This document shows, in pieces, positions 12,223 to 49,509 of a DNA stretch of 53,600 bases. The stretch lies in the IMG/VR virus record IMGVR_UViG_3300047563_000009, positions 1 to 53,600 of that record. One strand, 5' to 3'. Every line of letters starts with the position of its first letter. Position 1 is the first letter of the stretch. The DNA comes from a virus. Taxonomy: Duplodnaviria; Caudoviricetes. Made by a program: the position numbers and the translations under genes. Below the pieces are notes generated by a model. It saw only the letters and a program-made list of their open reading frames with translations, was not told the DNA's origin and searched no databases.

Positions 12223-12245
12223 GAGCCTCTACGGAGGCTCCCTTT
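12223..12245 (+). terminator. hairpin, possible terminator
   Basis: GAGCCTC-TACG-GAGGCTC then CCTTT. Confidence 0.45.
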
Positions 12246-13293
12246 GGAGTTTACCAAAGTGGTTAAGAAAAGAAAGCTTCTCCTTATTGACGGTGACATG
12301 ATTGCATTCAGTCATTGTGCGGCAGAAGAGTATGGGAAGGAGCCGGAAGATATCTCCTTTGCTAAAATTCAAATGTCTATGGATTCCAAAATGGAATTCC
12401 TTACTAAACGTTTGGGTGCAACTGATGTAATTACCTTCATCTCAGGTGATACAAACATGCGCCACATCATCTTCCCAGAGTACAAGTCAAACCGTGATGG
12501 TGTTTGGCGTCCAGACAACTTGAAGAATGCGAAAGCTCACCTAATGGTTGCATGGAATGGTATGAAGGTTGAAGGTCTGGAAGCAGATGATTTGCTGGCT
12601 TGTTTCGCTCGTCACAAATACGATGTGGAAATGGGTAAGCGAAATGTTGTGCGAACTTTAACAGACATTGGTCCATGTGACTATGATGAAGTTATCATTG
12701 CATCACTTGACAAAGACTTGCGTCAACTGAGTCAGTTTGGTGATACAGGTCCAGTAATTAAGCATTACCAATGGGAACGTGAGTCTCAGGGTATCGGCGA
12801 GAAAGTTGTAATTCCAAAAGATTATGGCGAACTCCGCTGCATCATCAAAGATAATGGTAAAACGAAGAAGAAAGAGGTTAAGGGTGATGGCCCTAAATTC
12901 TTCCTGCATCAACTCCTAATCGGTGACTCCACTGACGGCGTACTTGGATGTGGTATCCGTGAACTCAAAATCTACAAGTCTGGCGCCAAGTGTGGTCAGG
13001 AATACTACAAACGTGATGGTGTTGGGGCTGTTGAATCTTTCGAACTGTTGGATAAAACTACCACATATCTTGAAGGTTTAAAGAAAGTTATCGGCGCATA
13101 CATTATGCGTTTTGGTGACGATTGGGAAGTGGAGCTTCTCAAGAATGGGCGTCTTGTGTACATGCATCATGTTATTGAGCAAGCACGATATGTCCGTTTA
13201 TGGCATTACAAAGGTGGAATCAGTGATGTATTCGACCTTAAAGAGAAACGTGTAATCCAACATGCAGAGTACCTCCAGATTAAATCGGAGTAA
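12244..13293 (+). CDS. 5'-3' exonuclease (T7 gp6/FEN-like)
   Basis: LLIDGD, YKSNR, LEADD, SLDKDL, GDSTD motifs; TTG start. Confidence 0.92.
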   Translation: MEFTKVVKKRKLLLIDGDMIAFSHCAAEEYGKEPEDISFAKIQMSMDSKMEFLTKRLGATDVITFISGDTNMRHIIFPEYKSNRDGVWRPDNLKNAKAHLMVAWNGMKVEGLEADDLLACFARHKYDVEMGKRNVVRTLTDIGPCDYDEVIIASLDKDLRQLSQFGDTGPVIKHYQWERESQGIGEKVVIPKDYGELRCIIKDNGKTKKKEVKGDGPKFFLHQLLIGDSTDGVLGCGIRELKIYKSGAKCGQEYYKRDGVGAVESFELLDKTTTYLEGLKKVIGAYIMRFGDDWEVELLKNGRLVYMHHVIEQARYVRLWHYKGGISDVFDLKEKRVIQHAEYLQIKSE

Positions 13294-13295
13294 CA

Positions 13296-13817
13296 ATGTA
13301 CGGATATTGCGGAACGGAAGCCAAGTTTGTTGGTTGGCTTCAATCAGCATTGAGGTCTGTTTGGACTAAACATCCAAGCAAACTCTCTCTCGTTAAGAGT
13401 AAGCAAATTGCACTGAAAGTTGGAACGTCAAAGAAGGCAATCTTCCACGTCCAATGCTACCACTGCAAGAAGCTTTTCAAGCTGAAAGATATTGAAGTAA
13501 ACCACAAGAAGCAAGTTGGTGGACTTCTTAAACTGGAGGAACGCTACAGATTCTTAGACAACCTGTTACTAGTTCAGCCAGAAGATTTAGAGTTGCTGTG
13601 TCATGACTGTCACGGCATAGTCACGTACATTGAGCGCTACGGTGTATCAAGACGTGATGCAATTATTGAGAAAAAGTGCATTGCTTTTTCCAAGTTATCA
13701 GACGCAGAGCAAATTAAGAAGTGTAAGGCTGCTAAATTTGACCCTGTACCCAAAACCAAAATCGGACGCAAGAACGCTGTTCGAGAATATTTGAGAAAGA
13801 ATCTTAATGTCGATTAA
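13296..13817 (+). CDS. HNH-like endonuclease
   Basis: CYHC...VNH...LELLCHDCH zinc/HNH pattern. Confidence 0.7.
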   Translation: MYGYCGTEAKFVGWLQSALRSVWTKHPSKLSLVKSKQIALKVGTSKKAIFHVQCYHCKKLFKLKDIEVNHKKQVGGLLKLEERYRFLDNLLLVQPEDLELLCHDCHGIVTYIERYGVSRRDAIIEKKCIAFSKLSDAEQIKKCKAAKFDPVPKTKIGRKNAVREYLRKNLNVD

Positions 13818-25053: not shown

Positions 25054-26502
25054 ATGTCAATTTCCATTTCCGATATCATTAAGGTTAGCATTGCCGTTGC
25101 TCCTAACGCTGTTGCTACCGATGGATTCGGTCCTCTGCTCTTTATGAGCAAAGAGTTTGTTCCAACTGTTGATGTATATCCAGTTCGTTCGTACTCAAGT
25201 CTGAAAGAAGTTTTGGCAGATTTCCCTACTGGTGAAATTGCTGCTGCTGCAACCGCTTGGTACAGCCAGAAGCCAACTCCTAAGACTTTCCTCATTGGTG
25301 CAATCACTCATGAGACTGCTACTCCAGCAACCTCCGGCACTCTGACAGCAACTGCCAACGCAGTCCTTGCTGATGTTAAAGCCAAAGTTGATGCAGTACT
25401 CACTGTTGATGTTAATGGCGTGTCCAAATCTACTGCTGCAATGGACTTCTCAGGTGCTATTGACCTTGATGCTGTTGTAACTATTATTGCATCTGCGCTA
25501 TCTGCTGAAAACATTGCCCTGACTGTAACTCAGACTTCTGGCAAGTTTAAGCTGGCAACTGTTTCCACTGGTGCAAATGCAACTGTGAACAATGCAACTG
25601 GCGATGCTGCAACTGTTCTGAAACTGGACGCTGCAAGCAACCCTGATGCATTTGCTGGTGCTCCTGAGCTATCTATTGCTGGCGACCTTGCTGCAATTGC
25701 AAACACTCCATTCAACTTCTTCTATGTTGGCCTCGACCGTAAGTATCGTGCCGACTCTGCCACAGCAGATAACCAAATGTCTGTTGCTAAGTGGTGTGAA
25801 GGTATGGGCAAAGTGTTTGGCTGGGGTGACTCAGACGCTAACATTCTGATTAGCGGCAAGACTACAAGTTTCTCTCGCGCTAAAGCTCAGAACTTGCGTA
25901 ACACTATCTGCGTATTTGATGCATCTGAAAATGGCAACGAGTATCCAGAAGTTTCTATTCTTGGTCGTGCTGCAACTGTCAACTTCAACGTTGCCAACTC
26001 TGCACTAATTCTGGCATACAAACAAGGCCCAGGCGTTTCTGTTGCTGACCTGTCCTCTGGTCAAGTTACTGCACTGACTGCCGTGAATGGTAACGCATTC
26101 ATTTCCGTTGATGGGAACGTCATGTTCTGGAACGGTAAAATGGCTGATGGTACTTGGTTCGATACTGTACAAGGTGTTGAATGGCTGTCGCAGAAGATTC
26201 GTAACAACGTCTTCAACCTGTTCTACCAGTCTACTACCAAGATTCCTTGGACTGAAACTGGTGTTGCTCTGGTTAACCAGCAGGTGACTCTGGCTCTGGA
26301 ATTGGCTCGTACTAACGGATTAATTGCACCGGGCTATGATAACGAAGGCACTTTCTATCCTGACGGATATAAAGTAATTTCAACGGACTTGTCTCTGTTG
26401 CAGTCTCAGAAAGGTGAGCGTATTTGGGAAGGTACTTCCTTTATCGCAATCGGCTCTGGTGCTCTGCAAGGTGCTGAGATTTCCGGCAACTTCGTTCAGT
26501 AA
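25054..26502 (+). CDS. contractile tail sheath (DUF3383-type)
   Basis: ISDIIKVSI...GFG, FDTVQGVEWL, KIPWTETG motifs. Confidence 0.88.
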   Translation: MSISISDIIKVSIAVAPNAVATDGFGPLLFMSKEFVPTVDVYPVRSYSSLKEVLADFPTGEIAAAATAWYSQKPTPKTFLIGAITHETATPATSGTLTATANAVLADVKAKVDAVLTVDVNGVSKSTAAMDFSGAIDLDAVVTIIASALSAENIALTVTQTSGKFKLATVSTGANATVNNATGDAATVLKLDAASNPDAFAGAPELSIAGDLAAIANTPFNFFYVGLDRKYRADSATADNQMSVAKWCEGMGKVFGWGDSDANILISGKTTSFSRAKAQNLRNTICVFDASENGNEYPEVSILGRAATVNFNVANSALILAYKQGPGVSVADLSSGQVTALTAVNGNAFISVDGNVMFWNGKMADGTWFDTVQGVEWLSQKIRNNVFNLFYQSTTKIPWTETGVALVNQQVTLALELARTNGLIAPGYDNEGTFYPDGYKVISTDLSLLQSQKGERIWEGTSFIAIGSGALQGAEISGNFVQ

Positions 26503-26513
26503 GGGTGAGCTAA

Positions 26514-26969
26514 GTGAAGCAATATTCGTTTTATAATACCGACCTCATTATTGATGGTGCACGTGTAGAAGGGTTTACGGCTGGTAACGCTATCATTACT
26601 GCAAACCGTAATGTCCCACAGCACCTGCCTGTCATGGATGCATACGGTAAGTTGGCAGTGGCTACCACTGCTGACCAATCTGGTTCAGTTACGTTCCCAC
26701 TGCTGCAAACGGCAGACTGGAACGATATCCTATATTCCAAAGCGCAACTCACTCAAGCAACTGGTCTGTCTGGTAATAAGTCCTTGTGGCAACCAATTCA
26801 GCTACAGATTGTGGACAAGATGGGTGACGTTCTGGTAACAGGTGTCAACGGCTGTATCCTGAAACAGCCTGCAATTCAGCGTGGAGTTTCCTTCACGTCT
26901 AACCTGTGGGCAATTTATGTAGAACGCTTAATTATCCAGACGGGTTCTTACCCGGATATCGGCGTTTAA
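26514..26969 (+). CDS. tail tube protein
   Basis: YSF...IDG..VEGF; follows sheath; GTG start. Confidence 0.8.
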   Translation: MKQYSFYNTDLIIDGARVEGFTAGNAIITANRNVPQHLPVMDAYGKLAVATTADQSGSVTFPLLQTADWNDILYSKAQLTQATGLSGNKSLWQPIQLQIVDKMGDVLVTGVNGCILKQPAIQRGVSFTSNLWAIYVERLIIQTGSYPDIGV

Positions 26970-26981
26970 TTGGAGTAGCAA

Positions 26982-27440
26982 ATGGCTTGTGAACTGATTC
27001 AACGTGAGTTCACAAACTCCAAAGGTGAGCCAGTGTTAGTAGGTGTTAGACAATTGTCTGCATCGAAAGCACTGGACTTACATGTGGAGTTGGTCGGAAA
27101 GCTTGGCACGAGGATTTTCCCTTTCATTGAGAATACGTATTCGTTCGGTGATATTATTTTCCTCATGCAGCAACAAGAGCATCCGGTATTCACGAAATTA
27201 TTTAAAGATGTTTTAAGTTGTAATGTCACCAAAGATGGTCAGGAAGTTAAACCAACTTTATTTGACATGCAATTCAATGGCGAGCTAATGCTGGCATGCC
27301 ATATCTTTGCGTTTGTTCTCGAAGCAAACTTCTTGGCTTTTTTCAAGCAAGGGCTCGAAATCAACGAACAGAGACGGTTGGAGGCGGAGGAAGCATCCAA
27401 GCTGGAACAGCAGAAGAATTCGAGTCCGGAGAAGACCTAA
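26982..27440 (+). CDS. tail assembly chaperone (G-like)
   Basis: Between tube and tape measure; EANF..FF motif with slippery T TTT TTC at 27338-27344. Confidence 0.75.
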   Translation: MACELIQREFTNSKGEPVLVGVRQLSASKALDLHVELVGKLGTRIFPFIENTYSFGDIIFLMQQQEHPVFTKLFKDVLSCNVTKDGQEVKPTLFDMQFNGELMLACHIFAFVLEANFLAFFKQGLEINEQRRLEAEEASKLEQQKNSSPEKT

Positions 27441-27616
27441 GTTCTTTATTCCCGGAAATAAAATACTTCCTGCATCGTCCCGTAATCGAAGACAGTTCCT
27501 TATGTCGTTTATGCGAACTTCAAGATGGAACCTATTCGGTTATGGACTTGTTGACATTCCATGATATCCTCGACCTTCGTAAGAAGCTTGAACCAGTAGA
27601 AGAAACTAATGGCTAA
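27344..27616 (+). CDS. tail assembly chaperone extension (T-like, -1 frameshift)
   Basis: -1 frame open from the slippery site; RPV...LCELQDGTYSVMDL..FHDILD. Confidence 0.7.
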   Translation, partial: QARARNQRTETVGGGGSIQAGTAEEFESGEDLSSLFPEIKYFLHRPVIEDSSLCRLCELQDGTYSVMDLLTFHDILDLRKKLEPVEETNG

Positions 27617-30600
27617 TTTAAAAGAATTAATGCGCATGTCTGCCGACGATTTAATTGTCATGGGTGCGCAAGTAGGGCTTACGTTCCATACTGGTATGAA
27701 GAAGTCTCATATGGCAAGTCAACTTGCTCAGAGTGCTGCTTCTGGATGGATGGATGTTAATGCAGGTTTGATGGGCGGTGTTGCAGAAGATGAATCCTTT
27801 GGTGGTTCGTTTGGTGACGCCTCCATGATTTCAGATGCTGCTCATGTAGCTCAGATGATTTCTGGTGCTGGATATACAGAAGCTTTTCATCACGCAATGG
27901 GTGGTGGACAATCCCACCATGTAGAAGCAGTTCATTCATATATGAACTCGCTTGGCGTAAGTGCTGACGATGTTTGGATGCACATGCCAAAACCAAATCC
28001 GAATATGCCAACTGGTCATTTCGGTATGTTGAACGCATATCTGCGAGATACATTATCCGGTCATCAAGATATTATGCCGGAAATCGCTGGTCACTATACT
28101 GGTGACATCATGGGCGAGTATGCAACAAACAAAGGTGGAATTCAGGCGTCGTATGAGCATTTGGCTCATATGTATGTTGACAAGTCCCAGTATCGTATGG
28201 AGCATGTATACAACGATGATGTTGTACGTGTTGCAACGAGACTCGCAAATAGCATGGGGCATTCGTTTTCAGAGGTGGCATTCTCTGCTGCCAATGGTGC
28301 TCGCACTTCTTACATGTCTACGTTGCCTCATTTGGGTGACCCTTCTATAGTTGGTGACGTAGCTCACCCTCGTGCTGCACTTAATGCCTCTGGTCTTCCA
28401 ATGGGTGCAATTGGTTCTGGTGTTAATCCAGAGTACTCCTTAACTGCATCATTGACTGGTACTCCGGGATGGAGTCCTGCAAGTAAAGAATTGCATTCAA
28501 GTATCTCAGAATCTGTTAAGTCGTTAGCTGGTGTATACCGCGGCGACACAGGGATGAGTTTGGACAAGCATGTCTACAGTGACCGAGAAGCTGTAATGGA
28601 TTCTGCCTCCCGTTATGCAGACATTATGGATGTTCGTGAACGATACAATGCTCAGGATAACCCTTCATATTCCGCATCAACCATTCGTAACTTAATTAAT
28701 GGCACAAATGATTTTGATGATGAAGAAAACTATCCGGCAGGTTACGCACAAGGTCGTGCAATAGACCCAAGATTTAGAACTTTTGCAATGCAGAAAGAAG
28801 ATGTTGCAGAGCCGGGAAGTACTGCATTCTCCGCAGACTTCAACGAACCAACAAGTTGGAACTCAGCTCGCGCACGTCGTGAAAGTATTGCAATTTCAAA
28901 CTTCGATTCAATCCCTTGGCGTGATATTGAGAACGAAGGTACTGGTGTAAGATACCATAATAGTCTTGAACAGGGTACCAAAGAATGGCACGACATGAGG
29001 AACAAGTATGACATTACTGGTTCTACAGTGGGTGTGTACTTAGGTAATAGCAGCATATCAAGACCGTGGGAAGGGTTGATTGATAAACTTGGTATGCAGC
29101 GTGGCCCAGGAAGTAAGAATGCATGGACGGAAGAAACATTTGCAAAGGGACATGAATCAGAAGCTGCTGCTCGTCCAAGAGTAAGTTCGCAATTCGGTTT
29201 CGATATTAAAGAGGTTGGTGCGATAACCAACTCACAATATCCTAATATGATGTATTCTCCAGATGGGTTAATAGGTGATGACGCTCTTTGGGAACACAAG
29301 AATCCTTGGCGTGCTAACAAGTTTTCTGACCTTAATGCTGGCGAGCATCCAGACTACATGGACCAAGTTCAATTGGGCATGCTTATTTCTGGCCGTTCGC
29401 GTACTCTGTTCTCTCAATCTTTGGGAGAAGAAACAAGAAGTCAATGGATTGAAAGGGATGAAGGCTGGTACGACCGCAATAAAAGTCGCCTTGATTCTAT
29501 TGCTGGCCGCTTGGCTGCTGGCAGACAGTACCTTGAAGACAATCCCGGCGAAGTAAACGATAAAGAGCGCATTAATGGTGCTCGTGCTGCGATGATGGGG
29601 GAGGGTATCTGGAAGGATGTTAGACAACGTTCTGACAGAGGATTCTCTGCAAGTGCTGGCACTGCGAGCGACCCTTTTGCCCGCACAGGTTCTTCGTTTA
29701 ATGAAAGTGCTGGCAACGGATATGTTCCAAACTTCACAATGCCTGAACAAAACTTTCCTGCTGTAGTTGGAAGTGGTAACTCTGGAACCGAGTTAATGGC
29801 GCAAGCTGTTAAAGAAGGTATCTTAGGTGCTCAGGAAGAAAACAGACAGAAGCGTACTGGTGGTGGAACCTCTTCAACCGGGCCAGAAGAAGACGCAGAC
29901 TTTGACGGCTTAGGTAATCCTCGTGGTTGGTCACGTCGCAGATTCGATGAAGCAACCAGTGACGGCGGTTCTGGTGGCGGTCGTCGTCCTCCTAACAAGG
30001 GAGGCAGTTTCTATGATGATTTTGGAAGGGCTGGTGGTGCTTTGGCTGCTGGCGTTGCTGGTGGCAGTCTTTCGTCTTTAAGTGGTGGAGCAATGCAAGC
30101 TCTCATGGCTACGCCGTGGGGACGTATTGCTGGTATGGGTATTGGTGCTGTATCAATTGGTGCAGAGGCAATTGAAGGAATGAATGACTTTGTTGGTTCG
30201 GCATTGGATGCTGGCTTAACAAATGCAAATGAATATTCCTCAATTAGTCAGGGCATGGAAATGCTTGGTGCTAACCAACAACAAGCTGCCCGATTAAATC
30301 AAACCACACATAGTGCCTACAACACAATGTTGAATGGCGACCCCAGCGGCGCTATACGCATCGTGCAGGGAACCCGTGGCCTAGTAACCATTGGCGACAT
30401 TCGTTCGGCAGAGGGCGACCCAGTTGCCCTAGCGCGAGTTATTCAGGAAAGGGGACGTGAGCGCGGTTGGTCTATGGCAAGGATTGCCGGGGCAATGGAA
30501 ATGGCTGGCCTCAATGGTATGGCTCGCTCATATGTCCGACCAGAGCGCCAGAGCGGGGCAGAGGAAGTGGTTCAGAGTGGCAGGGATGCAGATGTGGGGG

Positions 30601-31310
30601 AAAGTGAAGCGGCCTTCCTTGACGCGAATGCGGAACGCTCACGCCTATCTCCTACCTACCTTGTGCCACAAAGTGCGCTTCAATATGGTGGTGGCATTGC
30701 AAGAGGTGTTGCAAATGGAGTCCGTGAAGGTCGTGAAAACGTAAGTGAAGTTGCTGGAAACATTCATGACTTTATTGCTGGTGCTGAGTCTGGAAATAAT
30801 CCTCTGGCTCGTAGTACAACTTCTTCTGCATTTGGTTCTATGCAAACGTTAGAGGGAACTAGACGTGACCCAGGATTTGGTGTCCGTCCTGCTAAGAACA
30901 ATTCGCCAGAAGAGGCTGCTCGTGTTGGTCGTGATTATTATGACGCGATGTATAATCGTTATAAAGACCACGACAAGGCAATGGCTGCTTACACAGATGG
31001 GCCAGGAACTGTTGATGCTGCTATTAAGAATCATGGTTCGGATTGGTTAACCTATATGCCAGCACAAGCGAAAGCTCGTGTGGATAAATTCCATAAGTGG
31101 CAAGAACAAGGTAACACAATCAATGAAGGTGCAACTGGCTTTACTCGCAATGGCATGTCCTATGGACAGACGTCGGCACCAACTGTGGTGAACGTTAATA
31201 TTAATGCGAAAGTAAATAACCAGAACGCAACTGCAACTGTATCAACTCCTAATGGTCAGTCTGTAACTCAGACTATGAACATGGGCAATGGTGCAATGCA
31301 ACGTCGTTAA
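27609..31310 (+). CDS. tape-measure-position protein with internal YqaJ/lambda-exonuclease-like domain and C-terminal lytic transglycosylase
   Basis: Follows chaperones; QGTKEWHDMR..ITGS, GHESE, SPDG, EHK, YxxQVQ; AESG..AFGSMQ..AAYTDGPG. Confidence 0.8.
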   Translation: MANLKELMRMSADDLIVMGAQVGLTFHTGMKKSHMASQLAQSAASGWMDVNAGLMGGVAEDESFGGSFGDASMISDAAHVAQMISGAGYTEAFHHAMGGGQSHHVEAVHSYMNSLGVSADDVWMHMPKPNPNMPTGHFGMLNAYLRDTLSGHQDIMPEIAGHYTGDIMGEYATNKGGIQASYEHLAHMYVDKSQYRMEHVYNDDVVRVATRLANSMGHSFSEVAFSAANGARTSYMSTLPHLGDPSIVGDVAHPRAALNASGLPMGAIGSGVNPEYSLTASLTGTPGWSPASKELHSSISESVKSLAGVYRGDTGMSLDKHVYSDREAVMDSASRYADIMDVRERYNAQDNPSYSASTIRNLINGTNDFDDEENYPAGYAQGRAIDPRFRTFAMQKEDVAEPGSTAFSADFNEPTSWNSARARRESIAISNFDSIPWRDIENEGTGVRYHNSLEQGTKEWHDMRNKYDITGSTVGVYLGNSSISRPWEGLIDKLGMQRGPGSKNAWTEETFAKGHESEAAARPRVSSQFGFDIKEVGAITNSQYPNMMYSPDGLIGDDALWEHKNPWRANKFSDLNAGEHPDYMDQVQLGMLISGRSRTLFSQSLGEETRSQWIERDEGWYDRNKSRLDSIAGRLAAGRQYLEDNPGEVNDKERINGARAAMMGEGIWKDVRQRSDRGFSASAGTASDPFARTGSSFNESAGNGYVPNFTMPEQNFPAVVGSGNSGTELMAQAVKEGILGAQEENRQKRTGGGTSSTGPEEDADFDGLGNPRGWSRRRFDEATSDGGSGGGRRPPNKGGSFYDDFGRAGGALAAGVAGGSLSSLSGGAMQALMATPWGRIAGMGIGAVSIGAEAIEGMNDFVGSALDAGLTNANEYSSISQGMEMLGANQQQAARLNQTTHSAYNTMLNGDPSGAIRIVQGTRGLVTIGDIRSAEGDPVALARVIQERGRERGWSMARIAGAMEMAGLNGMARSYVRPERQSGAEEVVQSGRDADVGESEAAFLDANAERSRLSPTYLVPQSALQYGGGIARGVANGVREGRENVSEVAGNIHDFIAGAESGNNPLARSTTSSAFGSMQTLEGTRRDPGFGVRPAKNNSPEEAARVGRDYYDAMYNRYKDHDKAMAAYTDGPGTVDAAIKNHGSDWLTYMPAQAKARVDKFHKWQEQGNTINEGATGFTRNGMSYGQTSAPTVVNVNINAKVNNQNATATVSTPNGQSVTQTMNMGNGAMQRR

Positions 31311-31385: not shown

Positions 31386-32483
31386 ATGCCGTGGATGCGC
31401 AGAGTTGAAGTAATAGTTACACGAAAGGATGACCCAGATGAGAAAACCATTTTCAATGCACATCGTATTGATTTTGAGGTTCGCTCAACTGTAGGTTGGC
31501 CAGCTGATACAGCAAACATAACTCTGTTTAACCTTGCTCTTGAAGAAGTTAAATTCCTACAGAACAAGAACTTCGGAGATATGTATATTGAAATTCGTGC
31601 TGGATATACAGAAGATGAACGTGGCGTTTCAGGTGGTGGTGTCAATAATTATGTTGATACCAAAAGCAAATCCGAAACAAGGATTGCAATTACAAACACA
31701 CTTCCAACAATCTTCTCTGGAATAATTACAAATGCTGTAGGTTATCGAAGACCTCCAGAACATGTCACACAATTGTTTTGTATTTCGAAGGCGTATGGTG
31801 CATCAACTGATTTTATTCAGATGAAAAAGATTCCACCAAACACCAAACTCATTGATGCAATTAGGTCAATGTGCACTGACTATGGGTTCGGCACTATCTC
31901 AACATTCGGTGTTGAAGATTCCGTACTTCAAACTAATATGCCTCGTGGGCGCGTCTTCCATGACACATTCTTGGAAGAGTTTAAGAAAATGCTGGGAGAG
32001 TATAATTTACTATTCTCAGTAACAACTGGTGAAATACAAATCTTCCCTGATACGTTTGGGGATAAAGATGCTGTAGACCGAATGTCCAAAGACAGGGAGC
32101 CAATCAAGCTTGATGCTAACCAAGTTATTGGGAATCCAGTTGCAGGAATTTGCACATACACCCTAAACACTTTCCTCAACCCATCTTTCCAACCGGGGAT
32201 GATTCTGGATGTGTCACCACTTCTTGGCAAAGAGTTGTTGGTAAATGGCGTGACCTCAATAACTGGTCAGGGCATTCTTTTAAATACAGACCAATCTGTA
32301 TTCCGTTGGGCGATGGAAGATAAGTATTTTATAACAGAAGTTGTCCATCATGGCTCTACTCACTCAATCGACTATCAAACTTCTGTAACTGCGTTGCTTG
32401 GTGGTAATACAGCAATGGGTGGTAAGGAAGCAAGTTGGCAACAAATGTATGCCAATAGTGGAATGGCAATGGAGTCATTTTAA
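31386..32483 (+). CDS. baseplate hub protein
   Basis: A.ITLFNL...IRAGY...IFSG pattern; synteny. Confidence 0.72.
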   Translation: MPWMRRVEVIVTRKDDPDEKTIFNAHRIDFEVRSTVGWPADTANITLFNLALEEVKFLQNKNFGDMYIEIRAGYTEDERGVSGGGVNNYVDTKSKSETRIAITNTLPTIFSGIITNAVGYRRPPEHVTQLFCISKAYGASTDFIQMKKIPPNTKLIDAIRSMCTDYGFGTISTFGVEDSVLQTNMPRGRVFHDTFLEEFKKMLGEYNLLFSVTTGEIQIFPDTFGDKDAVDRMSKDREPIKLDANQVIGNPVAGICTYTLNTFLNPSFQPGMILDVSPLLGKELLVNGVTSITGQGILLNTDQSVFRWAMEDKYFITEVVHHGSTHSIDYQTSVTALLGGNTAMGGKEASWQQMYANSGMAMESF

Positions 32484-40348: not shown

Positions 40349-40909
40349 ATGGTAACATTGAAGGCACTTGCATTAGGTTTAGCACTATTTTCGAACAATG
40401 CTCTGGCTTCGGCTGGAGCTTTCGAAACCCCGTTAATCCAATATGCAAGTCAAGCTTACTTAGATGGAAGTCTCAAACTTACTTCTTCACAACGGAAAGA
40501 GCTAGACTGTTTATCTAAAGTAATATGGTATGAATCTCGTGGAGAGAGCAAACGTGGAAAGATTCTTGTAGCTAATGTCGTTCAAAATCGAACAACATAT
40601 GGAAAGCCATTCGCTACAACCGTTTGTGATGTTGTCTATCAACGCAATCAGTTTGCATGGACACGAGATGCGAAGAAGAAGAATGCAAAGTTTAAGAGTG
40701 TTGCAAAGAAGCACCTCGAAACTGAGAACAAGCAGGTGATGGATACTATTTCTATTGCTATGAAGATTGTTTTATTTAACCCAACTCCAATCACCAAGGC
40801 AACTCACTTCTGTTCTAAAGGTGAGAGGTGTGCATTTGGTAATGTGAAACGGTTGGGCAAGGTTGGCAATCACACTTTCTTTGAATATTTGGGAAACAAA
40901 TCATCATGA
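40349..40909 (+). CDS. SleB/Hydrolase_2-like cell wall hydrolase with N-terminal export signal
   Basis: CL...IWYESRGE..G...VA.VV.NR...VCDVVYQ.NQF.W, GNHTF. Confidence 0.85.
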   Translation: MVTLKALALGLALFSNNALASAGAFETPLIQYASQAYLDGSLKLTSSQRKELDCLSKVIWYESRGESKRGKILVANVVQNRTTYGKPFATTVCDVVYQRNQFAWTRDAKKKNAKFKSVAKKHLETENKQVMDTISIAMKIVLFNPTPITKATHFCSKGERCAFGNVKRLGKVGNHTFFEYLGNKSS

Positions 40910-41040
40910 CCACATCAAGATTTACATACTGGTTTCGGGTTGGTGGCAAATGGAAAATGACTCATAGTCTCGAGAAAGCTAAAATGCTGGAGAGACAAGG
41001 GTTCACCATTGTTGCTGGAAATAAGCCGGGTAAGTTGTAG
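40906..41040 (+). CDS. small hypothetical protein (44 aa)
   Basis: ATGA overlap; MTTSRFTYWFRVGG... Confidence 0.5.
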   Translation: MTTSRFTYWFRVGGKWKMTHSLEKAKMLERQGFTIVAGNKPGKL

Positions 41041-41057
41041 ATATAAGGAAATGTTTA

Positions 41058-41237
41058 ATGAGCGGCAAACCTCCTATTAAAGTTGTCAGGGATGATGCAT
41101 TGGCAAGGTTCAGATTAGACACAACATGGAAAGATGTAGATGTTGGTAACTCTATAAAGTGGTACCATGTTGCTTCTATAATCTTAATCACACTGGCACT
41201 ACCACTGATGCCAATATTATTTAAATATTTTTGTTAG
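41058..41237 (+). CDS. small membrane protein (59 aa)
   Basis: AAGGA SD; C-terminal TM segment. Confidence 0.5.
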   Translation: MSGKPPIKVVRDDALARFRLDTTWKDVDVGNSIKWYHVASIILITLALPLMPILFKYFC

Positions 41238-41390
41238 TAAGTTGCGAGAAATGGGTGTATTCCGTTAGGAATGCAGTCATTTTAAGCATGAAAATAACAA
41301 TAATTCCCTATAAAATAAGTCAAAAATTAGCTAAATATTGCTACAATATTGGCTTATTCTAAAGGGAAATTAACAGGATTTATGCTGAAA

Positions 41391-41440
41391 TGGTCGGTCA
41401 ATTGTGGTTATAGAGTGGAACTGCTTGGTCGGTCAATTGT
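41391..41440 (+). repeat. 15-bp direct repeat TGGTCGGTCAATTGT x2
   Basis: Exact copies at 41391-41405 and 41426-41440. Confidence 0.7.
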
Positions 41441-41686
41441 TCGAAATTACGGTGGGTTCGAGTTAAACTATGCTACGAAATTAGGTGTCGTATAACAATT
41501 CAATTTTTATAATTTTTTTTATTTCAGGCAAGCGAGGAGGGAGTGTCCAACGTCCTATCGGACTTAAATACGGTCCCTACTCCAACTTTTTCTACGCCTA
41601 TCGGCTTAATACCAAACCAAGTTAGGCGCTACGCTAATGAGTCAAGGTCAAGGGAATGACGTGTGATAGGTAGTATACAGTCTGAG

Positions 41687-41703
41687 ACATTAGTTGGATG
41701 TGA
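41687..41703 (+). promoter_or_regulatory. variant promoter motif ACATTAGTTGGATGTGA upstream of RNAP
   Basis: Shares ACATTAGTTGGA with the repeated motif. Confidence 0.4.
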
Positions 41704-41768
41704 TTGTGAGAAGGCTACGCCAACTTAATCCGTTTCATAAACTATCTCACAACTAATTGGAGCTTATC

Positions 41769-43733
41769 ATGACTATCACTACTCAGACTATGAAATCCGT
41801 TGTTCCTTCAATCGCTGCGTTAGTATTCCGTGCCAAAGAGAAACAGTCTTATCTTGAGCCACAGACTTGTGCACTGGCTGCGTTAGCCATGTTCCACATG
41901 ATGACGTCTTTCGTTCGTGATGACGTTGTACCAGCCATGTCGATGGTTGCACTTGCTGACTCTTCTATCCATCGTGCTAACTCTAGCAACAACGATATGA
42001 AGCAATATCACTACATCGATGGTGGCGTTAAGCTGATTGGTTTGGCTAAGCACTTTGGTTTCATCACCATGAACGAAGACAAGTCATTCCAGATGACAGA
42101 TGCATGGGTTGAACTTGTTACTACCAAAGACACTAGCATTCCATTCACTGTTCGTGTCACTGATGAGAATCGTCGTAAGCCATTTGTTAAAGGTGGCAAG
42201 GTTAAGCCTTCCAAGTTGCTCAAGTCTACAATTGAGTTCTTGCAGGACACTGAGTATCACGTTGACGCTTCAATGGTTGCAGTCATCAAGAAGGTGCTTG
42301 AACTCAAGCGTTTCAATGGTGAGCAGATGCCACTGGCAATTAAGCAAGAGGAACATGTTTGGAACAATGCTGTAGCAATGGCACTTCAAGATGTCCTGTT
42401 CTCTGATTACTTTGCTGACAATCGTGGTCGTTTGTATCACGTTGCTTGTGCTGGTCCAAATCCACAATCGAGTGACTTTGCTCGTTGCTTGTATTCTCAC
42501 AATGTTGAGAACTTTGTCAACAAGCTGAACGAAGATGGTTCAACTACCGAAGCATACAACATGTTCATTGCTGAACTTGATGATATCGCTGGTGGATATT
42601 GGAACAAGGCTTCCACTCTTACACGAGTAGCTCAAAACCCAGCAGGCTGGCTTTCTCGCATTCTTTCAATGAGCAAAGATGGTGTTGAGATTGAGGGTGA
42701 AATTGTCAAAGCTCCTAAGAAGCCATTCACCTATGTACGTCTGGCTCTGGATTGGTTCCAGTTTGAAACAACTGGTGCATGTGATTCTCGTGTAGGATTT
42801 GGCTTAGATGCTAAATGTTCTGGTACTCAGTATTTAGCATTCATTGCTGGCAATATGGAAATGGCTCGTGCAACTGGTCTGGTTGACAGTGAAACTAAAG
42901 CATCTGACCCATATCAGTTATCTCTGGTAGAGTTGATGAAACTGTTATCTAAATCATCAATGAATCCATCTAATGAGATTAAGGATGCATACCTCAACCC
43001 TAAAGCAGGTCGTAACTTTATCAAGACTCCATACATGGCAGTACAGTATGGTGGTGGTGTTGGTGCTTTAACTGGTAACAAAGACTTCTGTGATTATGTT
43101 GTCAACAATCTGGAAGTTGATATTGCCAAGCTGGCAGACTTTGCTGAACTTTGTGTTGATGCTGTACATGCTGCACTTGGTGAAAAGATTAACCTATTCA
43201 TCAACCAAACTATGGCTGCTGTGAAAGCTAAGTGTGATGCTCTTGCTAAACCTTACTTCACATACAAGCACACTGATGGTCTTACTGTTCTTAAACCTTG
43301 CTTCCCATCACGTGACATTTGTGAAGCATTCAGCATTCGTGTTGATTCACAAACTCGTGTTATCTTTGGTCAGCAAGTTGACAACAAACCTTGGACTATT
43401 CGTGAGAGCAATCCAACTCCTGAGGAATTCGTTCGCACCTTCGTTGTTAACTACATTCAGGGTATTGATGCATTGGTAGCACGTACTGTTGCCAAATATG
43501 CTAAAGCTGCTGGATTACGTGGATTCACTTCTATTCATGACTGTTTCCGTTGCTGCTTGGCAGATGCTCCTAAGATGATGGAAGTTATTCGTTTAGCTTA
43601 CATCGAAGTATTTGTTACCAACAATCAGTTCGAATCACTTAGCAAACAACTTGGTGGCATTAACATGTTCCACGAGAATATCGTAACAGAAGAATTGCTC
43701 AACTCTGAGCATGCATATTACTTCTGCCAGTGA
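41769..43733 (+). CDS. single-subunit T7-like DNA-directed RNA polymerase (short, 654 aa)
   Basis: DNRGRLY; motif A LDAKCSGTQ; motif B RNFIKTPYMAVQYG; motif C IHDCF; ATG41769 after GGAG. Confidence 0.95.
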   Translation: MTITTQTMKSVVPSIAALVFRAKEKQSYLEPQTCALAALAMFHMMTSFVRDDVVPAMSMVALADSSIHRANSSNNDMKQYHYIDGGVKLIGLAKHFGFITMNEDKSFQMTDAWVELVTTKDTSIPFTVRVTDENRRKPFVKGGKVKPSKLLKSTIEFLQDTEYHVDASMVAVIKKVLELKRFNGEQMPLAIKQEEHVWNNAVAMALQDVLFSDYFADNRGRLYHVACAGPNPQSSDFARCLYSHNVENFVNKLNEDGSTTEAYNMFIAELDDIAGGYWNKASTLTRVAQNPAGWLSRILSMSKDGVEIEGEIVKAPKKPFTYVRLALDWFQFETTGACDSRVGFGLDAKCSGTQYLAFIAGNMEMARATGLVDSETKASDPYQLSLVELMKLLSKSSMNPSNEIKDAYLNPKAGRNFIKTPYMAVQYGGGVGALTGNKDFCDYVVNNLEVDIAKLADFAELCVDAVHAALGEKINLFINQTMAAVKAKCDALAKPYFTYKHTDGLTVLKPCFPSRDICEAFSIRVDSQTRVIFGQQVDNKPWTIRESNPTPEEFVRTFVVNYIQGIDALVARTVAKYAKAAGLRGFTSIHDCFRCCLADAPKMMEVIRLAYIEVFVTNNQFESLSKQLGGINMFHENIVTEELLNSEHAYYFCQ

Positions 43734-48715: not shown

Positions 48716-49087
48716 ATGTCCACAACCAAAGTGTACGACGATACAAACACCGGCATCATTGGGGCCAATGATTACAAACAGAAAGACACACATCCAGACG
48801 TAAAAGGTCGCGTAAACGTTGACGGCCTTTGGTATTGGGTATCAGGCTGGAACAAGGAGGGTTCAAATGGTCGTGAATTTACTTCACTGGCATTAACCAT
48901 TATGACTCAGGACGATGTTGACAAAATGATGGCTAAACGTGCAGAAAAGAATGCACCACAGCAGCGGAATCAGCAACGTACTCAACCACCAGCAGCGGCA
49001 AACAACCCAGCACCACAGCAGTCAATTCCAGAAGGGCATCCTGCACAGGAACCGCCAGCGGGTTTTGACGAAGATATCCCATTCTGA
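48716..49087 (+). CDS. ssDNA-binding protein (SSB-like, acidic DIPF tail)
   Basis: HPDxKG..VDG..YWVSGW core; Q/P linker; C-terminus FDEDIPF. Confidence 0.75.
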   Translation: MSTTKVYDDTNTGIIGANDYKQKDTHPDVKGRVNVDGLWYWVSGWNKEGSNGREFTSLALTIMTQDDVDKMMAKRAEKNAPQQRNQQRTQPPAAANNPAPQQSIPEGHPAQEPPAGFDEDIPF

Positions 49088-49509
49088 TGAAACGTTGCTC
49101 TTGCTGTGGAATAACCAAAACCACAGCAGAGTATCAAAAGCGTGCTGCGTCTAAAGACGGGCTTACATCATCTTGTAAGTCTTGTCTTTCTTTGCGCGAC
49201 AAAGCCAGAGATACTCCAGAACGCGCAGCGCAGCGAAAGGCGTATCAACATGGTGTTGGCAAAGAGGTTGCAAACGCTGCAAAGAAAAGGTACGACAAAG
49301 CGAATCCAAAGAAACGCAATGCTCGTGTCGCAGTGGGTAACGCAGTCAGAGACGGCAAGCTGATTAAGAAATGTTGTGAAGTTTGTGGAGGTGTAGAATC
49401 ATTTGCTCATCACGACGACTACAATAAACCTTTATTAGTGCGTTGGTTATGCGACCTACACCACAAAGAATGGCACGACAAACACGGTGAAGCAGTAAAC
49501 CGAATCTGA
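49087..49509 (+). CDS. zinc-binding HNH-like endonuclease
   Basis: CxxC x3; HHDDYNKPL.VRWLC..HH..WH. Confidence 0.75.
   Translation: MKRCSCCGITKTTAEYQKRAASKDGLTSSCKSCLSLRDKARDTPERAAQRKAYQHGVGKEVANAAKKRYDKANPKKRNARVAVGNAVRDGKLIKKCCEVCGGVESFAHHDDYNKPLLVRWLCDLHHKEWHDKHGEAVNRI

Follow-up and report, generated by a model that had tools for sequence, protein, structure and literature searches.

The ORF at 27609–31310 of the window (the whole stretch of DNA analysed, 53,600 nucleotides) encodes a 1233-aa protein that very probably serves as the tail tape measure in a myophage of the Chaseviridae type. The protein is modular: a nuclease domain and a transglycosylase domain are fused in one polypeptide, which is very probably a component of the virion. 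The nuclease may be delivered with the genome and act on the phage's own DNA ends; we put the probability of this role at 0.4–0.45.

Gene neighbourhood and assignment of the tape measure

The window is the complete 53.6-kb genome of a Chaseviridae-like myophage. The tail genes relevant here are:

25054–26502, plus strand, tail sheath gene (phrog_205 tail sheath, E 3.4e-95)
26514–26969, plus strand, tail tube gene (phrog_280, E 2.9e-31; the syntenic gene of phage 4HA13 is annotated as tail tube protein)
26982–27440, plus strand, tail assembly chaperone (phrog_11820 tail assembly chaperone, E 2.4e-65)
27338–27344, plus strand, candidate slippery heptamer T_TTT_TTC, read off the sequence
open to 27616, plus strand, −1-frame extension of the chaperone (phrog_4364 is matched in the −1 frame further downstream, E 1.4e-16)
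27609–31310, plus strand, ORF of the tape-measure-position virion protein (1233 aa; matched over its full length by phrog_19855 "virion structural protein", 1605.8 bits)
31386–32483, plus strand, gp27-like baseplate hub gene (phrog_196 baseplate hub, E 2.2e-51; in 4HA13 the corresponding gene carries the annotation T4 gp27 homologue)

To judge from the sequence, the chaperone is likely extended by a shift to the −1 frame, and the ORF, starting with ATG, is flanked by this frameshifted chaperone and the baseplate hub. The order sheath, tube, chaperone, 1233-aa ORF, hub is identical in phage 4HA13. The genome has no second ORF of a length sufficient for a ruler, and the length of the family members varies narrowly (1198–1284 aa in 53 members). 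No Pfam tape-measure family is hit by any of 38 family members, and AlphaFold predicts mainly globular domains as against the long coiled coil expected for a ruler. Hence the assignment as a tape measure is based on gene position, size and presence in the virion. The latter is indicated by phage 4HA13: when its purified virions were analysed by LC-MS/MS, the homologue, 62% identical to the 1233-aa protein, was among the top twelve proteins (PMC9699118, Fig. 7 legend, section 3.3). A sequence-only reading of this DNA had proposed a virion protein with a nuclease and a transglycosylase in a single ORF at the tape-measure position, and the ORF, the motifs, the fold and the gene order all bear this out.

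Nuclease domain

The central enzymatic module is:

28941–29603 (aa 445–665), plus strand, PD-(D/E)xK nuclease domain of the lambda-exonuclease/YqaJ family (profiles, AF2, Foldseek and VIA; R464, E518, D552, E562, K564, Q586)

All motifs of the sequence-only reading lie exactly where expected: QGTKEWHDMR (455–464), ITGS (469–472), GHESE (514–518), SPDG (550–553, with D552), WEHK (561–564, with E562 and K564) and YMDQVQLGM (583–591). In a phmmer search of the PDB, LHK-Exo (3syy) matches aa 453–642 with E 2.5e-7, and the family profile recovers 3syy (E 8.7e-17) and lambda Exo (E 4.7e-7). The PHROG matches are "exonuclease" (5.4e-16) and "RecE-like" (8.4e-15). The domain sequence scores below the curated cut-offs of both PF09588 and TIGR03033 (for the latter, 9.4e-10 and 38.8 bits at a cut-off of 68.05 bits). 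Structure prediction, which the earlier reading had suggested as a check, places the domain in the PD-(D/E)xK lambda-exonuclease fold. The AF2 model of aa 430–684 has pLDDT 89.7 and pTM 0.87, Foldseek finds lambda Exo 3slp_A at E 2.3e-11 and a second match at E 2.9e-10, and the VIA Z-scores are 16.9 to LHK-Exo and 16.4 to lambda Exo.

The active-site residues of lambda Exo, which we take to be R28 (the 5'-phosphate pocket), E85, D119, E129, K131 and Q157, align with R464, E518, D552, E562, K564 and Q586, respectively. The latter are invariant in 62/62 aligned relatives, nine of which are only 21–29% identical overall. Thus the catalytic residues, earlier described as apparently intact, form the full set known from lambda Exo. 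Moreover, the nuclease is the best-conserved domain, with a mean pairwise identity of 59.5% and 19% invariant columns, compared to 7–10% in other domains; 11 of the 17 columns that are invariant over the whole-protein alignment fall within it. This conservation points to a complete active site and an apparently working enzyme. The LHK-Exo oligomer is a trimer, and by analogy with its relatives the domain is probably trimeric as well.

Lambda Exo (Red-alpha), LHK-Exo of Laribacter hongkongensis and the YqaJ family (PF09588, TIGR03033) share with this domain the fold, the motif order, the active site and the 5'-phosphate-binding arginine. However, they are cytoplasmic enzymes of 200–300 aa, whereas here the domain is embedded at aa 445–665 of a 1233-aa virion protein. 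TIGR03033 applied to the whole 53.6-kb record yields one locus only (28965–29411), situated within the ORF, so that, as had been noted, there is no separate YqaJ gene.

Other modules

The remaining parts of the protein are:

27612–27755 (aa 2–49), plus strand, helix-hairpin resembling the Rho N-terminal subdomain (HeH-like; AF2 helices 4–9, 12–21 and 32–55, pLDDT 73–86)
27831–28706, plus strand, two Met/His-rich helical domains, aa 75–150 and 165–366 (AF2 pLDDT 83–94)
29856–30170 (aa 750–854), plus strand, Gly-rich low-confidence segment, candidate membrane-inserting part (pLDDT <50)
30171–30644 (aa 855–1012), plus strand, conserved all-helical domain (pLDDT 86–95; invariant G869, G887, G924, G967)
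30750–31112 (aa 1048–1168), plus strand, SLT family lytic transglycosylase (Pfam PF01464; E1060-S1061, GSMQ, AYTDG)
31113–31310 (aa 1169–1233), plus strand, C-terminal tail, disordered, rich in Asn, Thr and Gln and conserved at its very end, candidate anchor (pLDDT <50)

The likeness of the N-terminus to a Rho-N/HeH helix pair, proposed earlier, is seen at the level of the fold (VIA against 1a62_A: Z 6.1, 47 aa aligned, rmsd 2.3, 28% identity), but it is weak, as the profile match of aa 2–49 has E 2.2–2.6 and Pfam gives none. The next 400 residues (aa 40–440) had been characterised as Met/His-rich and unlike the usual tape-measure repeats. The composition was described correctly, since aa 61–440 contain 5.0% Met and 4.7% His, compared to 2.6% and 2.0% in 32 other proteins of this phage, and no internal repeats were found in aa 75–366. 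However, AlphaFold yields folded domains rather than low-complexity sequence, and aa 170–365 are confidently globular and helical (pLDDT 85–94). H94, M97, H125, M156 and H162, in or near these domains, are conserved.

The Gly-rich segment ends in two weakly hydrophobic Gly/Ala stretches, at about 809–832 and 839–858. Hydropathy peaks at aa 811–840, the G/A pattern is conserved, and a membrane role of the segment seems plausible. For the helical domain at aa 855–1012, the language-model features are suggestive of PhageMin_Tail tape-measure clusters (0.87), which we regard as a lead only.

The C-terminal lysozyme-like transglycosylase was identified correctly: ESGNN starts at E1060 and is followed by FGSMQ (1075–1079) and AAYTDGPG (1126–1133), and the PF01464 match (E 2.4e-9) has 37.2 bits at a cut-off of 21.3. 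The VIA Z-scores are 12.7 to MltF and 10.6 to Slt70, and both E1060 and S1061 are invariant in 53/53 sequences. By analogy with gp41 of Pseudomonas phage Pa193 (PMC11456595), the C-terminal tail may anchor the protein to the tail tip or hub.

Possible role at genome entry

The tape measure of myophage Pa193 is a trimer that has a transglycosylase domain and is fixed to the tail tip by its C-terminus; for this protein an unfolded state in the lumen, with refolding once it has been ejected, was proposed (PMC11456595). The tail lumen is given as 4 nm in PMC9022992. Since three copies of a folded domain of about 25 kDa exceed this width, delivery of the nuclease would require unfolding and refolding. 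In the virion, the protein would be mostly unfolded in the 4-nm tube lumen, with the C-terminus at the tail tip and the N-terminus adjoining the leading DNA end. Upon sheath contraction it would exit C-terminus first; the SLT domain would cleave peptidoglycan, the hydrophobic segment may aid an inner-membrane conduit, and the N-terminal half, including the nuclease, would refold at the cytoplasmic side immediately before the DNA. There the nuclease, probably a trimer, would resect the 5' strand at the terminally redundant end of the phage genome itself, ahead of phage gene expression. The resulting 3' tail would be a poor entry site for RecBCD and may anneal with the repeat at the opposite terminus, so that the genome would be circularised or concatenated. 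A single trimer per virion could handle one end only.

IMG/VR classifies the record as linear without end repeats. For the 4HA13 genome, a direct terminal repeat of 3120 bp was predicted (PMC9699118, section 3.2.1), but its description is ambiguous, as it is called both "circularly permutated" and terminally repeated (PMC9699118).

The Chaseviridae have a T7-like RNA polymerase and replication genes. A separate gene at 12244–13293 encodes a T7-gp6-like 5'-3' exonuclease (phrog_107, E 2.9e-55). As it already serves the replication phase, we infer that a second, virion-borne exonuclease fits the moment of entry best. The record yielded no lambda Gam. The genome also has two endonuclease genes, HNH (13296–13817) and endonuclease VII-like (49087–49509).

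End resection, end protection and attack on host DNA, the three roles suggested by the sequence-only reading, are all hypothetical. The delivered nuclease could instead be directed at foreign DNA, with a head start before phage gene expression: the broken host chromosome, replication intermediates of linear plasmids or prophages, DNA of co-infecting phages, or DNA that forms part of a defence system. This is unlikely. The intact, conserved and virion-borne nuclease agrees with it as well as with action on the phage's own ends, and the HNH and endonuclease VII-like products could make ends later. However, enzymes of the lambda Exo/RecE family require a free dsDNA end, the conserved R464 pocket indicates an end with a 5'-phosphate, and an intact circular chromosome has no end at entry. 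Further, 3–6 molecules per virion would be scant enzyme for degrading DNA in bulk, and with T7-like replication modules host DNA is usually broken down by the gp6-like exonuclease, which is expressed later.

It is rather improbable that the domain is chiefly a structural module for oligomerisation or for holding the DNA end, catalysis being secondary or tightly restrained. A trimeric ring of the lambda Exo type, together with the HeH-like domain, would then grip or cap the leading DNA end at the neck or channel mouth. Tape measures are trimeric, judging by Pa193 (PMC11456595), lambda Exo and LHK-Exo (PDB entries 1avq, 3slp and 3syy) are DNA-encircling toroidal trimers, and the N-terminus, expected beside the DNA end, weakly resembles a nucleic-acid-binding helix pair. 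On the other hand, a clamp would tolerate changes in D552, E562 and K564, the metal-binding and general-base residues, whereas their invariance is what selection for catalysis yields. Moreover, the lambda Exo toroid is about 8 nm, too big for the 4-nm lumen.

Conservation and origin of the fusion

Of 106 matching phage records, 80 carry the protein nearly at full length. The nuclease part used as a query retrieves 93 long proteins, whereas the non-nuclease query aa 801–1040 retrieves 71, and in all 71 the nuclease is present. Hence the survey of relatives proposed earlier shows that the fusion is fixed. The module order is unchanged in ten more distant long relatives, one of them inside a syntenic structural module. 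Stand-alone relatives account for 80 domain-only loci in bacterial genomes and for 83 short and 44 mid-length representatives in the set used for the nuclease tree. In this tree, the embedded domains fall into a single clade with good support (21 embedded and one stand-alone, SH-aLRT 97) and thus, by this sequence tree, share a single origin.

These data bear on action of the nuclease in the producing cell, where a late unassembled pool could serve as an exonuclease for recombination or concatemer processing, the fusion being gene economy. The sole lambda-exo-family gene of the genome would suit such a role, and its stand-alone relatives belong to the usual recombination genes of phages. It is nevertheless a doubtful explanation, as the fusion is kept across very divergent relatives, the sole possible reversion being the stand-alone protein nested in the clade. 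The gp6-like enzyme is already a dedicated exonuclease, and, according to PMC9022992, the unassembled tape measure is normally coated with chaperone. Further, no single-strand annealing partner, RecT or ERF, was found, including among 30 ORFs scanned with PHROGs. The lack of an annealing partner, in which the genome differs from lambda Exo/YqaJ systems, means that canonical exonuclease–annealase recombination is not supported.

Contigs from an independent study tile the ORF without any mismatch; one of them, 1578 nt long, covers the entire nuclease domain and both flanks, and a 24.4-kb contig of a variant covers the entire ORF. In Proteus phage Myduc, both BLAST pieces lie within one 3870-nt CDS. 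The merging of two genes by an assembly error, a concern of the sequence-only reading, is thus ruled out by the 80 records, the Myduc CDS and the identical contigs, and these together with the fold and profile statistics leave practically no room for an assembly or frameshift artefact or a chance motif match.

Comparison with known systems

Mycobacteriophage TM4 Tmp and T5 Pb2 are tape measure proteins with a peptidoglycan hydrolase. Pa193 gp41 likewise is a long protein of the tail lumen whose gene follows the chaperones; it has a cell-wall-cutting domain and is a proposed ejection protein (PMC11456595). In contrast to these three, the protein considered here has two enzyme domains, and the remainder is predicted to be globular and helical, not coiled coil. 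We know of no report of a nuclease in Pa193 gp41, TM4 Tmp or T5 Pb2.

T7 gp16 is similarly an ejected virion protein of about 1300 aa with an SLT domain, and the SLT region gives a VIA Z-score of 7.3 to the gp15–gp16 complex (6yt5_G). However, T7 is a podovirus, gp16 resides in the capsid core, its SLT domain is N-terminal, and a nuclease domain is lacking. Two other virion proteins, T4 gp2 and Mu N, protect the ends of incoming DNA by binding and capping them. Their purpose would be alike if the nuclease acts on the phage's own ends, but the 1233-aa protein would remodel the end enzymatically; they are not known to be related to it in sequence.

While databases already tag the nuclease domain, we found no paper discussing this domain in tape measures of the Chaseviridae type. 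The nuclease tape measure is a real, unstudied variant among enzyme-carrying tape measure proteins. The nuclease-bearing design seems to be common to the whole family of Chaseviridae-type phages, and its role at genome entry seems to be unstudied. If the nuclease indeed acts on the phage's own ends at entry, RecBCD at the exposed end would be dealt with before the phage genes are expressed.

The phage and the tape-measure locus

The 53.6-kb window is a complete virus record. Among GenBank phages megablast yielded partial matches only, the best being Escherichia phage vB_EcoM_4HA13 (below, 4HA13), which is 77% identical across 26% of the ORF under study. At the protein level, this ORF has matches in 106 phage records, at least 80% of its length being covered in 80 of them, and the best identity is 61.8%. 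The taxonomy lines of the matching records place them in the Chaseviridae (phiEcoM-GJ1, ST32, 4HA13, Erwinia phage Y2, Pectobacterium phage PM1, Proteus phage Myduc and others). Hence the window phage adds a member to a known family of myophages whose replication and transcription genes are T7-like. The tape-measure locus has the following organization.

Genes and signals around the tape-measure position
25054-26502, upstream of the tape-measure-position ORF: tail sheath gene
26514-26969, upstream of the tape-measure-position ORF: tail tube gene
26982-27440: tail assembly chaperone gene; the -1 frame is open to 27616 and forms a conserved extension that matches phrog_4364
27338-27344: slippery heptamer T_TTT_TTC in the overlap of the chaperone and the extension
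27609-31310, + strand: tape-measure-position ORF, 1233 aa
31386-32483, downstream of the tape-measure-position ORF: gp27-like baseplate hub gene

The gene order around the tape measure is identical in 4HA13, Myduc and L084, a 51.8-kb viral contig holding a distant relative, and no second ORF long enough for a tail ruler was found elsewhere in the genome. The counterparts of the -1-frame extension of the chaperone (27296-27616) are annotated as a separate small ORF, e.g. ORF65 of ST32 and gp065 of Myduc.

Two other regions deserve mention. An HNH endonuclease gene (13296-13817) is situated between the genes for a gp6-like exonuclease and DNA ligase; such HNH genes are described as varying among close relatives (PMC6266442). 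The region 40909-43733, following the lysis genes, contains a stretch of about 850 bp without a long ORF and an RNA polymerase ORF (41757-43733, TTG start, 658 aa) that matches only positions 373-816 of the RNA polymerase PHROG, so this gene may be split or mis-started. The alignment with the 4HA13 record suggests that the terminal repeat, together with the physical start of the genome, may be located close to this region.

Integrity of the gene and presence of a homologue in the virion

The contigs of an independent study tile the ORF and are letter-identical to the window; a single 1578-nt contig covers 28292-29869, that is, the entire nuclease domain and both its neighbours. This excludes two genes joined by an assembly or frameshift error. 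An apparent split of the gene in Proteus phages was rejected as well, as the two BLAST pieces sit within one CDS.

A 24.4-kb contig represents a close variant of the phage and covers the entire ORF, being about 98% alike over most of it. The differences are one in-frame 3-nt insertion and three replaced segments (28795-28826, 30151-30279 and 30427-31123) with diverged or different-length sequence, the largest of which takes in the end of a helical domain and most of the transglycosylase (SLT) domain. These replacements suggest mosaic exchange of the wall-cutting end.

In the published LC-MS/MS data (PMC9699118), the 4HA13 homologue, 62% identical, comes second in the list of the twelve virion proteins with the highest abundance, the same source reporting 15 virion proteins at 50% coverage or more.

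The nuclease domain

The sequence-only reading had listed the ordered motifs of a nuclease of the lambda exonuclease/YqaJ family, as well as those of a transglycosylase, in the 1233-aa protein; the motif check placed every one of them at the residues it had named. In the PDB, phmmer retrieves the exonuclease of Laribacter hongkongensis, LHK-Exo (3syy, E 2.5e-7, aa 453-642). With a profile of 53 family members the E-value for 3syy falls to 8.7e-17, lambda exonuclease (lambda Exo) also being retrieved at 4.7e-7, and the PHROG families "exonuclease" and "RecE-like" are matched at E about 1e-15. Curated models score low for this particular protein: PF09588, the Pfam YqaJ family, gives no match at E ≤ 1, and TIGR03033 scores 38.8 bits, under its cut-off of 68.05. 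In the family as a whole, PF09588 is matched at E ≤ 0.1 by 36 of 38 members (best 6.2e-21), and a precomputed match exists for 88 of 93 relatives. The sub-cut-off scores thus mark a divergent member with the same fold.

The AlphaFold (AF2) model of aa 430-684 has pLDDT 89.7 and pTM 0.87. The top Foldseek structures for it are lambda Exo (3slp_A, E 2.3e-11) and LHK-Exo (E 2.9e-10); VIA, an independent all-against-representatives structure search, yields Z of 16.4 and 16.9 to lambda Exo and LHK-Exo, with 179-188 residues aligned at rmsd 3.2. By its predicted fold, motifs and profile similarity, the domain is a member of the lambda Exo/YqaJ family.

In the alignment with the PDB matches, R464, E518, D552, E562, K564 and Q586 correspond to the key residues R28, E85, D119, E129, K131 and Q157 of lambda Exo, respectively. 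They comprise the catalytic Asp-Glu-Lys set (D552, E562, K564), a further Glu (E518), the Gln (Q586), and R464, the arginine for the 5'-phosphate. All six are invariant in 62 of 62 aligned sequences, nine of which are just 21-29% identical overall, and also in 38 of 38 family members. The 62-sequence alignment has 17 invariant columns in total, and 11 of these, including all six key residues, fall inside the nuclease domain. No other part of the protein is as conserved: the mean pairwise identity in the domain reaches 59.5%, and 19% of its columns are invariant, versus 7-10% elsewhere. Taken together, the invariant key residues and the highest conservation form, at the level of the alignments, the signature of selection for catalysis.

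Unlike typical members of the lambda Exo/YqaJ family, the protein scores under the thresholds of the curated models and appears to have no annealase as its partner: no RecT or ERF was found in the 53.6-kb record and no annealase among the 30 ORFs scanned against PHROG.

Other domains and the probable tape-measure identity

The AlphaFold model of aa 1-1200 (mean pLDDT 72, pTM 0.34) strings together confidently predicted domains through linkers of low confidence and has no long coiled coil.

Domain composition of the 1233-aa protein
aa 1-50: helix pair (AlphaFold)
aa 75-150 and aa 170-365: helical domains (AlphaFold, pLDDT up to 94)
aa 445-665: nuclease (AlphaFold)
aa 750-854: Gly-rich low-confidence stretch, weak hydrophobic peaks at 811-858
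aa 855-1012: all-helical domain (AlphaFold, pLDDT 86-95)
aa 1048-1168: SLT domain (AlphaFold)
aa 1169-1233: disordered tail, conserved at its end

With the 1200-residue model, the VIA matches fall mainly on the nuclease and the SLT domain. The latter has a lysozyme-like fold (MltF, Z 12.7, 125 aa aligned, rmsd 2.8) and scores 37.2 bits with PF01464 versus the cut-off of 21.3; 33 of 38 family members match this Pfam family, and the catalytic Glu-Ser pair (E1060, S1061) shows no variation in 53 of 53 sequences. The assignment of this predicted domain to the lytic transglycosylases is solid.

The N-terminal helix pair resembles residues 1-48 of Rho (1a62_A; VIA Z 6.1, 47 aa, rmsd 2.3, 28% identity), and the family profile retrieves chains of the Rho RNA-binding domain over the same residues with non-significant E-values of 2.2-2.6; Pfam has no match to the helix pair at E ≤ 1. 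The two signals for a Rho-N/HeH likeness are both weak, and they agree. The enrichment in Met and His that had been noticed in the N-terminal region is borne out by composition, and self-BLAST detects no internal repeats. In aa 75-366 (27831-28706), H94, M97, H125, M156 and H162 are strictly conserved and there is no Cys. Judging by these residues, it is conceivable that the Met/His-rich N-terminal domains bind metal.

None of 38 family members matches PhageMin_Tail, TMP_2 or other tape-measure Pfam families at E ≤ 0.1, and the ESM Atlas searches by language-model features with aa 160-370 and 800-1015 give only sub-0.9 leads (0.77-0.87) to tape-measure clusters. By the rule of 0.15 nm of tail per tape-measure residue, 1233 aa would correspond to 185 nm, and the 891 aa outside the nuclease and SLT domains to 134 nm. 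The tail of ST32, whose homologue has 1241 aa, is reported to be 132 ± 9 nm long (PMC6266442). The fit of 134 nm to this tail is only suggestive, because the remaining parts are predicted by AlphaFold to be globular, with no coiled coil.

Distribution and history of the fusion

The survey of relatives proposed in the sequence-only reading shows the fusion to be a constant feature of the family. Within the size range of 678-2158 aa, the nuclease part retrieved 93 proteins, all of 800-1284 aa and with the same architecture. Conversely, the search with a non-nuclease part (aa 801-1040) produced 71 long relatives, and the nuclease is kept in 71 of 71; no nuclease-less version was found among them. 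The exhaustive domain-only search of 1.84 billion representatives gave 775 matches at E ≤ 0.001. Ten additional long, distant relatives (962-1446 aa) carry the domain at a corresponding relative position; segment HMMs recognise the 801-1040 domain in all ten, the N-terminal region in seven and SLT in six.

One distant relative is annotated as "YqaJ viral recombinase family protein" of Hafnia alvei and is encoded in the contig L084 within a syntenic structural module. There, the stretch from the tape measure with the nuclease to the baseplate hub includes two additional ORFs (391 aa and 152 aa; 13570-15355 of L084), which the window lacks. The match of the L084 portal gene (283-2435) is split into two parts, 325-1197 and 2016-2408, with a 189-aa ORF (1424-1993) in between; this interruption could be a homing-type or intein-like element. 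One full-length member bears the UniRef name "Tail fiber protein, Staphylococcus phage Pel53", the family otherwise occurring in enterobacterial phages, and this may be a labelling issue.

In the tree of 148 domains, 21 embedded domains and a single stand-alone protein form one clade (SH-aLRT 97). Since the embedded domains share this clade, the phylogeny fits one ancient fusion. The search of bacterial genome contigs with the family alignment gave at least 80 loci, all domain-only (query residues within 414-709); among the matches listed there is no full-length relative, and the nearest stand-alone ones are ordinary prophage-type YqaJ genes with 25-39% identity.

Possible action at genome entry

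By combining the anatomy of the protein with published knowledge of tape measures, we infer a course of events at entry. The tape measure of myophage Pa193 is described as a trimer that includes a transglycosylase domain and has its C-terminus held at the tail tip; the proposal made in that study is that the protein lies unfolded in the lumen and regains its fold once ejected (PMC11456595). The lumen of the tube is given as about 4 nm wide, and tape measures are thought to help build a conduit in the inner membrane (PMC9022992). In the present protein, the C-terminal tail would be anchored at the hub, so that the SLT domain would exit first and meet peptidoglycan. The Gly/Ala hydrophobic segment would be next, meeting the inner membrane, and the last part to exit, directly ahead of the DNA, would be the N-terminal half, which bears the nuclease and the HeH-like tip. 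With this exit order, the order of the modules (wall enzyme, membrane segment, DNA enzyme, DNA-binding tip) matches that of the compartments crossed.

Enzymes of the lambda Exo type are toroidal homotrimers that digest double-stranded DNA processively in the 5'-3' direction. They require an end of double-stranded DNA, and the conserved arginine pocket seen in the alignment suggests that this end carries a 5'-phosphate. At entry, the phage's own end would be the only one of this kind that is reliably available. In 4HA13 a direct terminal repeat of 3120 bp has been predicted (PMC9699118). Resection of the 5' strand in such a repeat would leave a 3' tail able to anneal with the other repeat copy. 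A 3' tail is also a poor loading site for RecBCD.

The genome encodes a separate gp6-like exonuclease, available for later use, and neither a RecT/ERF partner nor a member of the lambda Gam family was found in the record; the missing Gam counts for little, since RecBCD inhibitors of other kinds are small proteins for which models are poor. These observations argue for a role at the time of entry and against a classical one in recombination. It is possible that the nuclease acts in the producing cell before assembly, which leaves unexplained why the fusion is never undone. Against an attack of the delivered nuclease on foreign DNA speak its requirement for ends and the low number of copies in a virion. 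A structural DNA-end clamp as the main function is hard to reconcile with the invariant catalytic residues and the size of the lumen.

In a more elaborate form of the entry-time role, each tape-measure trimer would deliver exactly one ring of the lambda Exo type, tethered by a DNA-binding N-terminal helix pair to the first-entering DNA end and serving as an end-processing device brought in by the virion. It would resect the terminal repeat of about 3 kb within seconds, hiding the end from RecBCD and priming circularisation by single-strand annealing. We assign to this reading a probability of roughly one in four.

Comparison with known systems and implications

As a whole, the protein would work like enzyme-carrying tape measures, namely gp41 of Pa193 and, reportedly, Tmp of TM4 and Pb2 of T5, and like gp16 of T7. 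The nuclease as tape-measure cargo is undescribed in the literature found: none of the papers retrieved deals with a nuclease as part of a tape measure or of the Chaseviridae protein, the original papers on phiEcoM-GJ1 and Erwinia phage Y2 being outside the search results. Existing pointers to the domain are the precomputed Pfam tags, the NCBI name of the Hafnia protein, and the annotation "putative endonuclease" in SKA49. To our knowledge, the cargo of tape measures known so far consists of cell-wall hydrolases only. Likewise, we know of only a few model phages for which the fate of a linear genome in the first seconds after entry has been described, the means being end-capping proteins and RecBCD inhibitors.

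A whole family of coliphages that are easy to grow, including flopper, whose record gives E. coli MG1655 as the isolation host, has a strictly conserved predicted DNA-end exonuclease within the protein that would exit the tail just ahead of the DNA. This raises a structural question, namely, how two enzymes of 15-25 kDa pass through a 4-nm tube and then refold. If the enzyme acts at entry, it would represent a new way to handle genome ends and would also add a new type to the cargo that tape measure proteins carry. If, further, the ring is indeed tethered to the entering end, it would define a new class of strategies for countering RecBCD and establishing the genome, and would be the first nuclease known on a tape measure protein.
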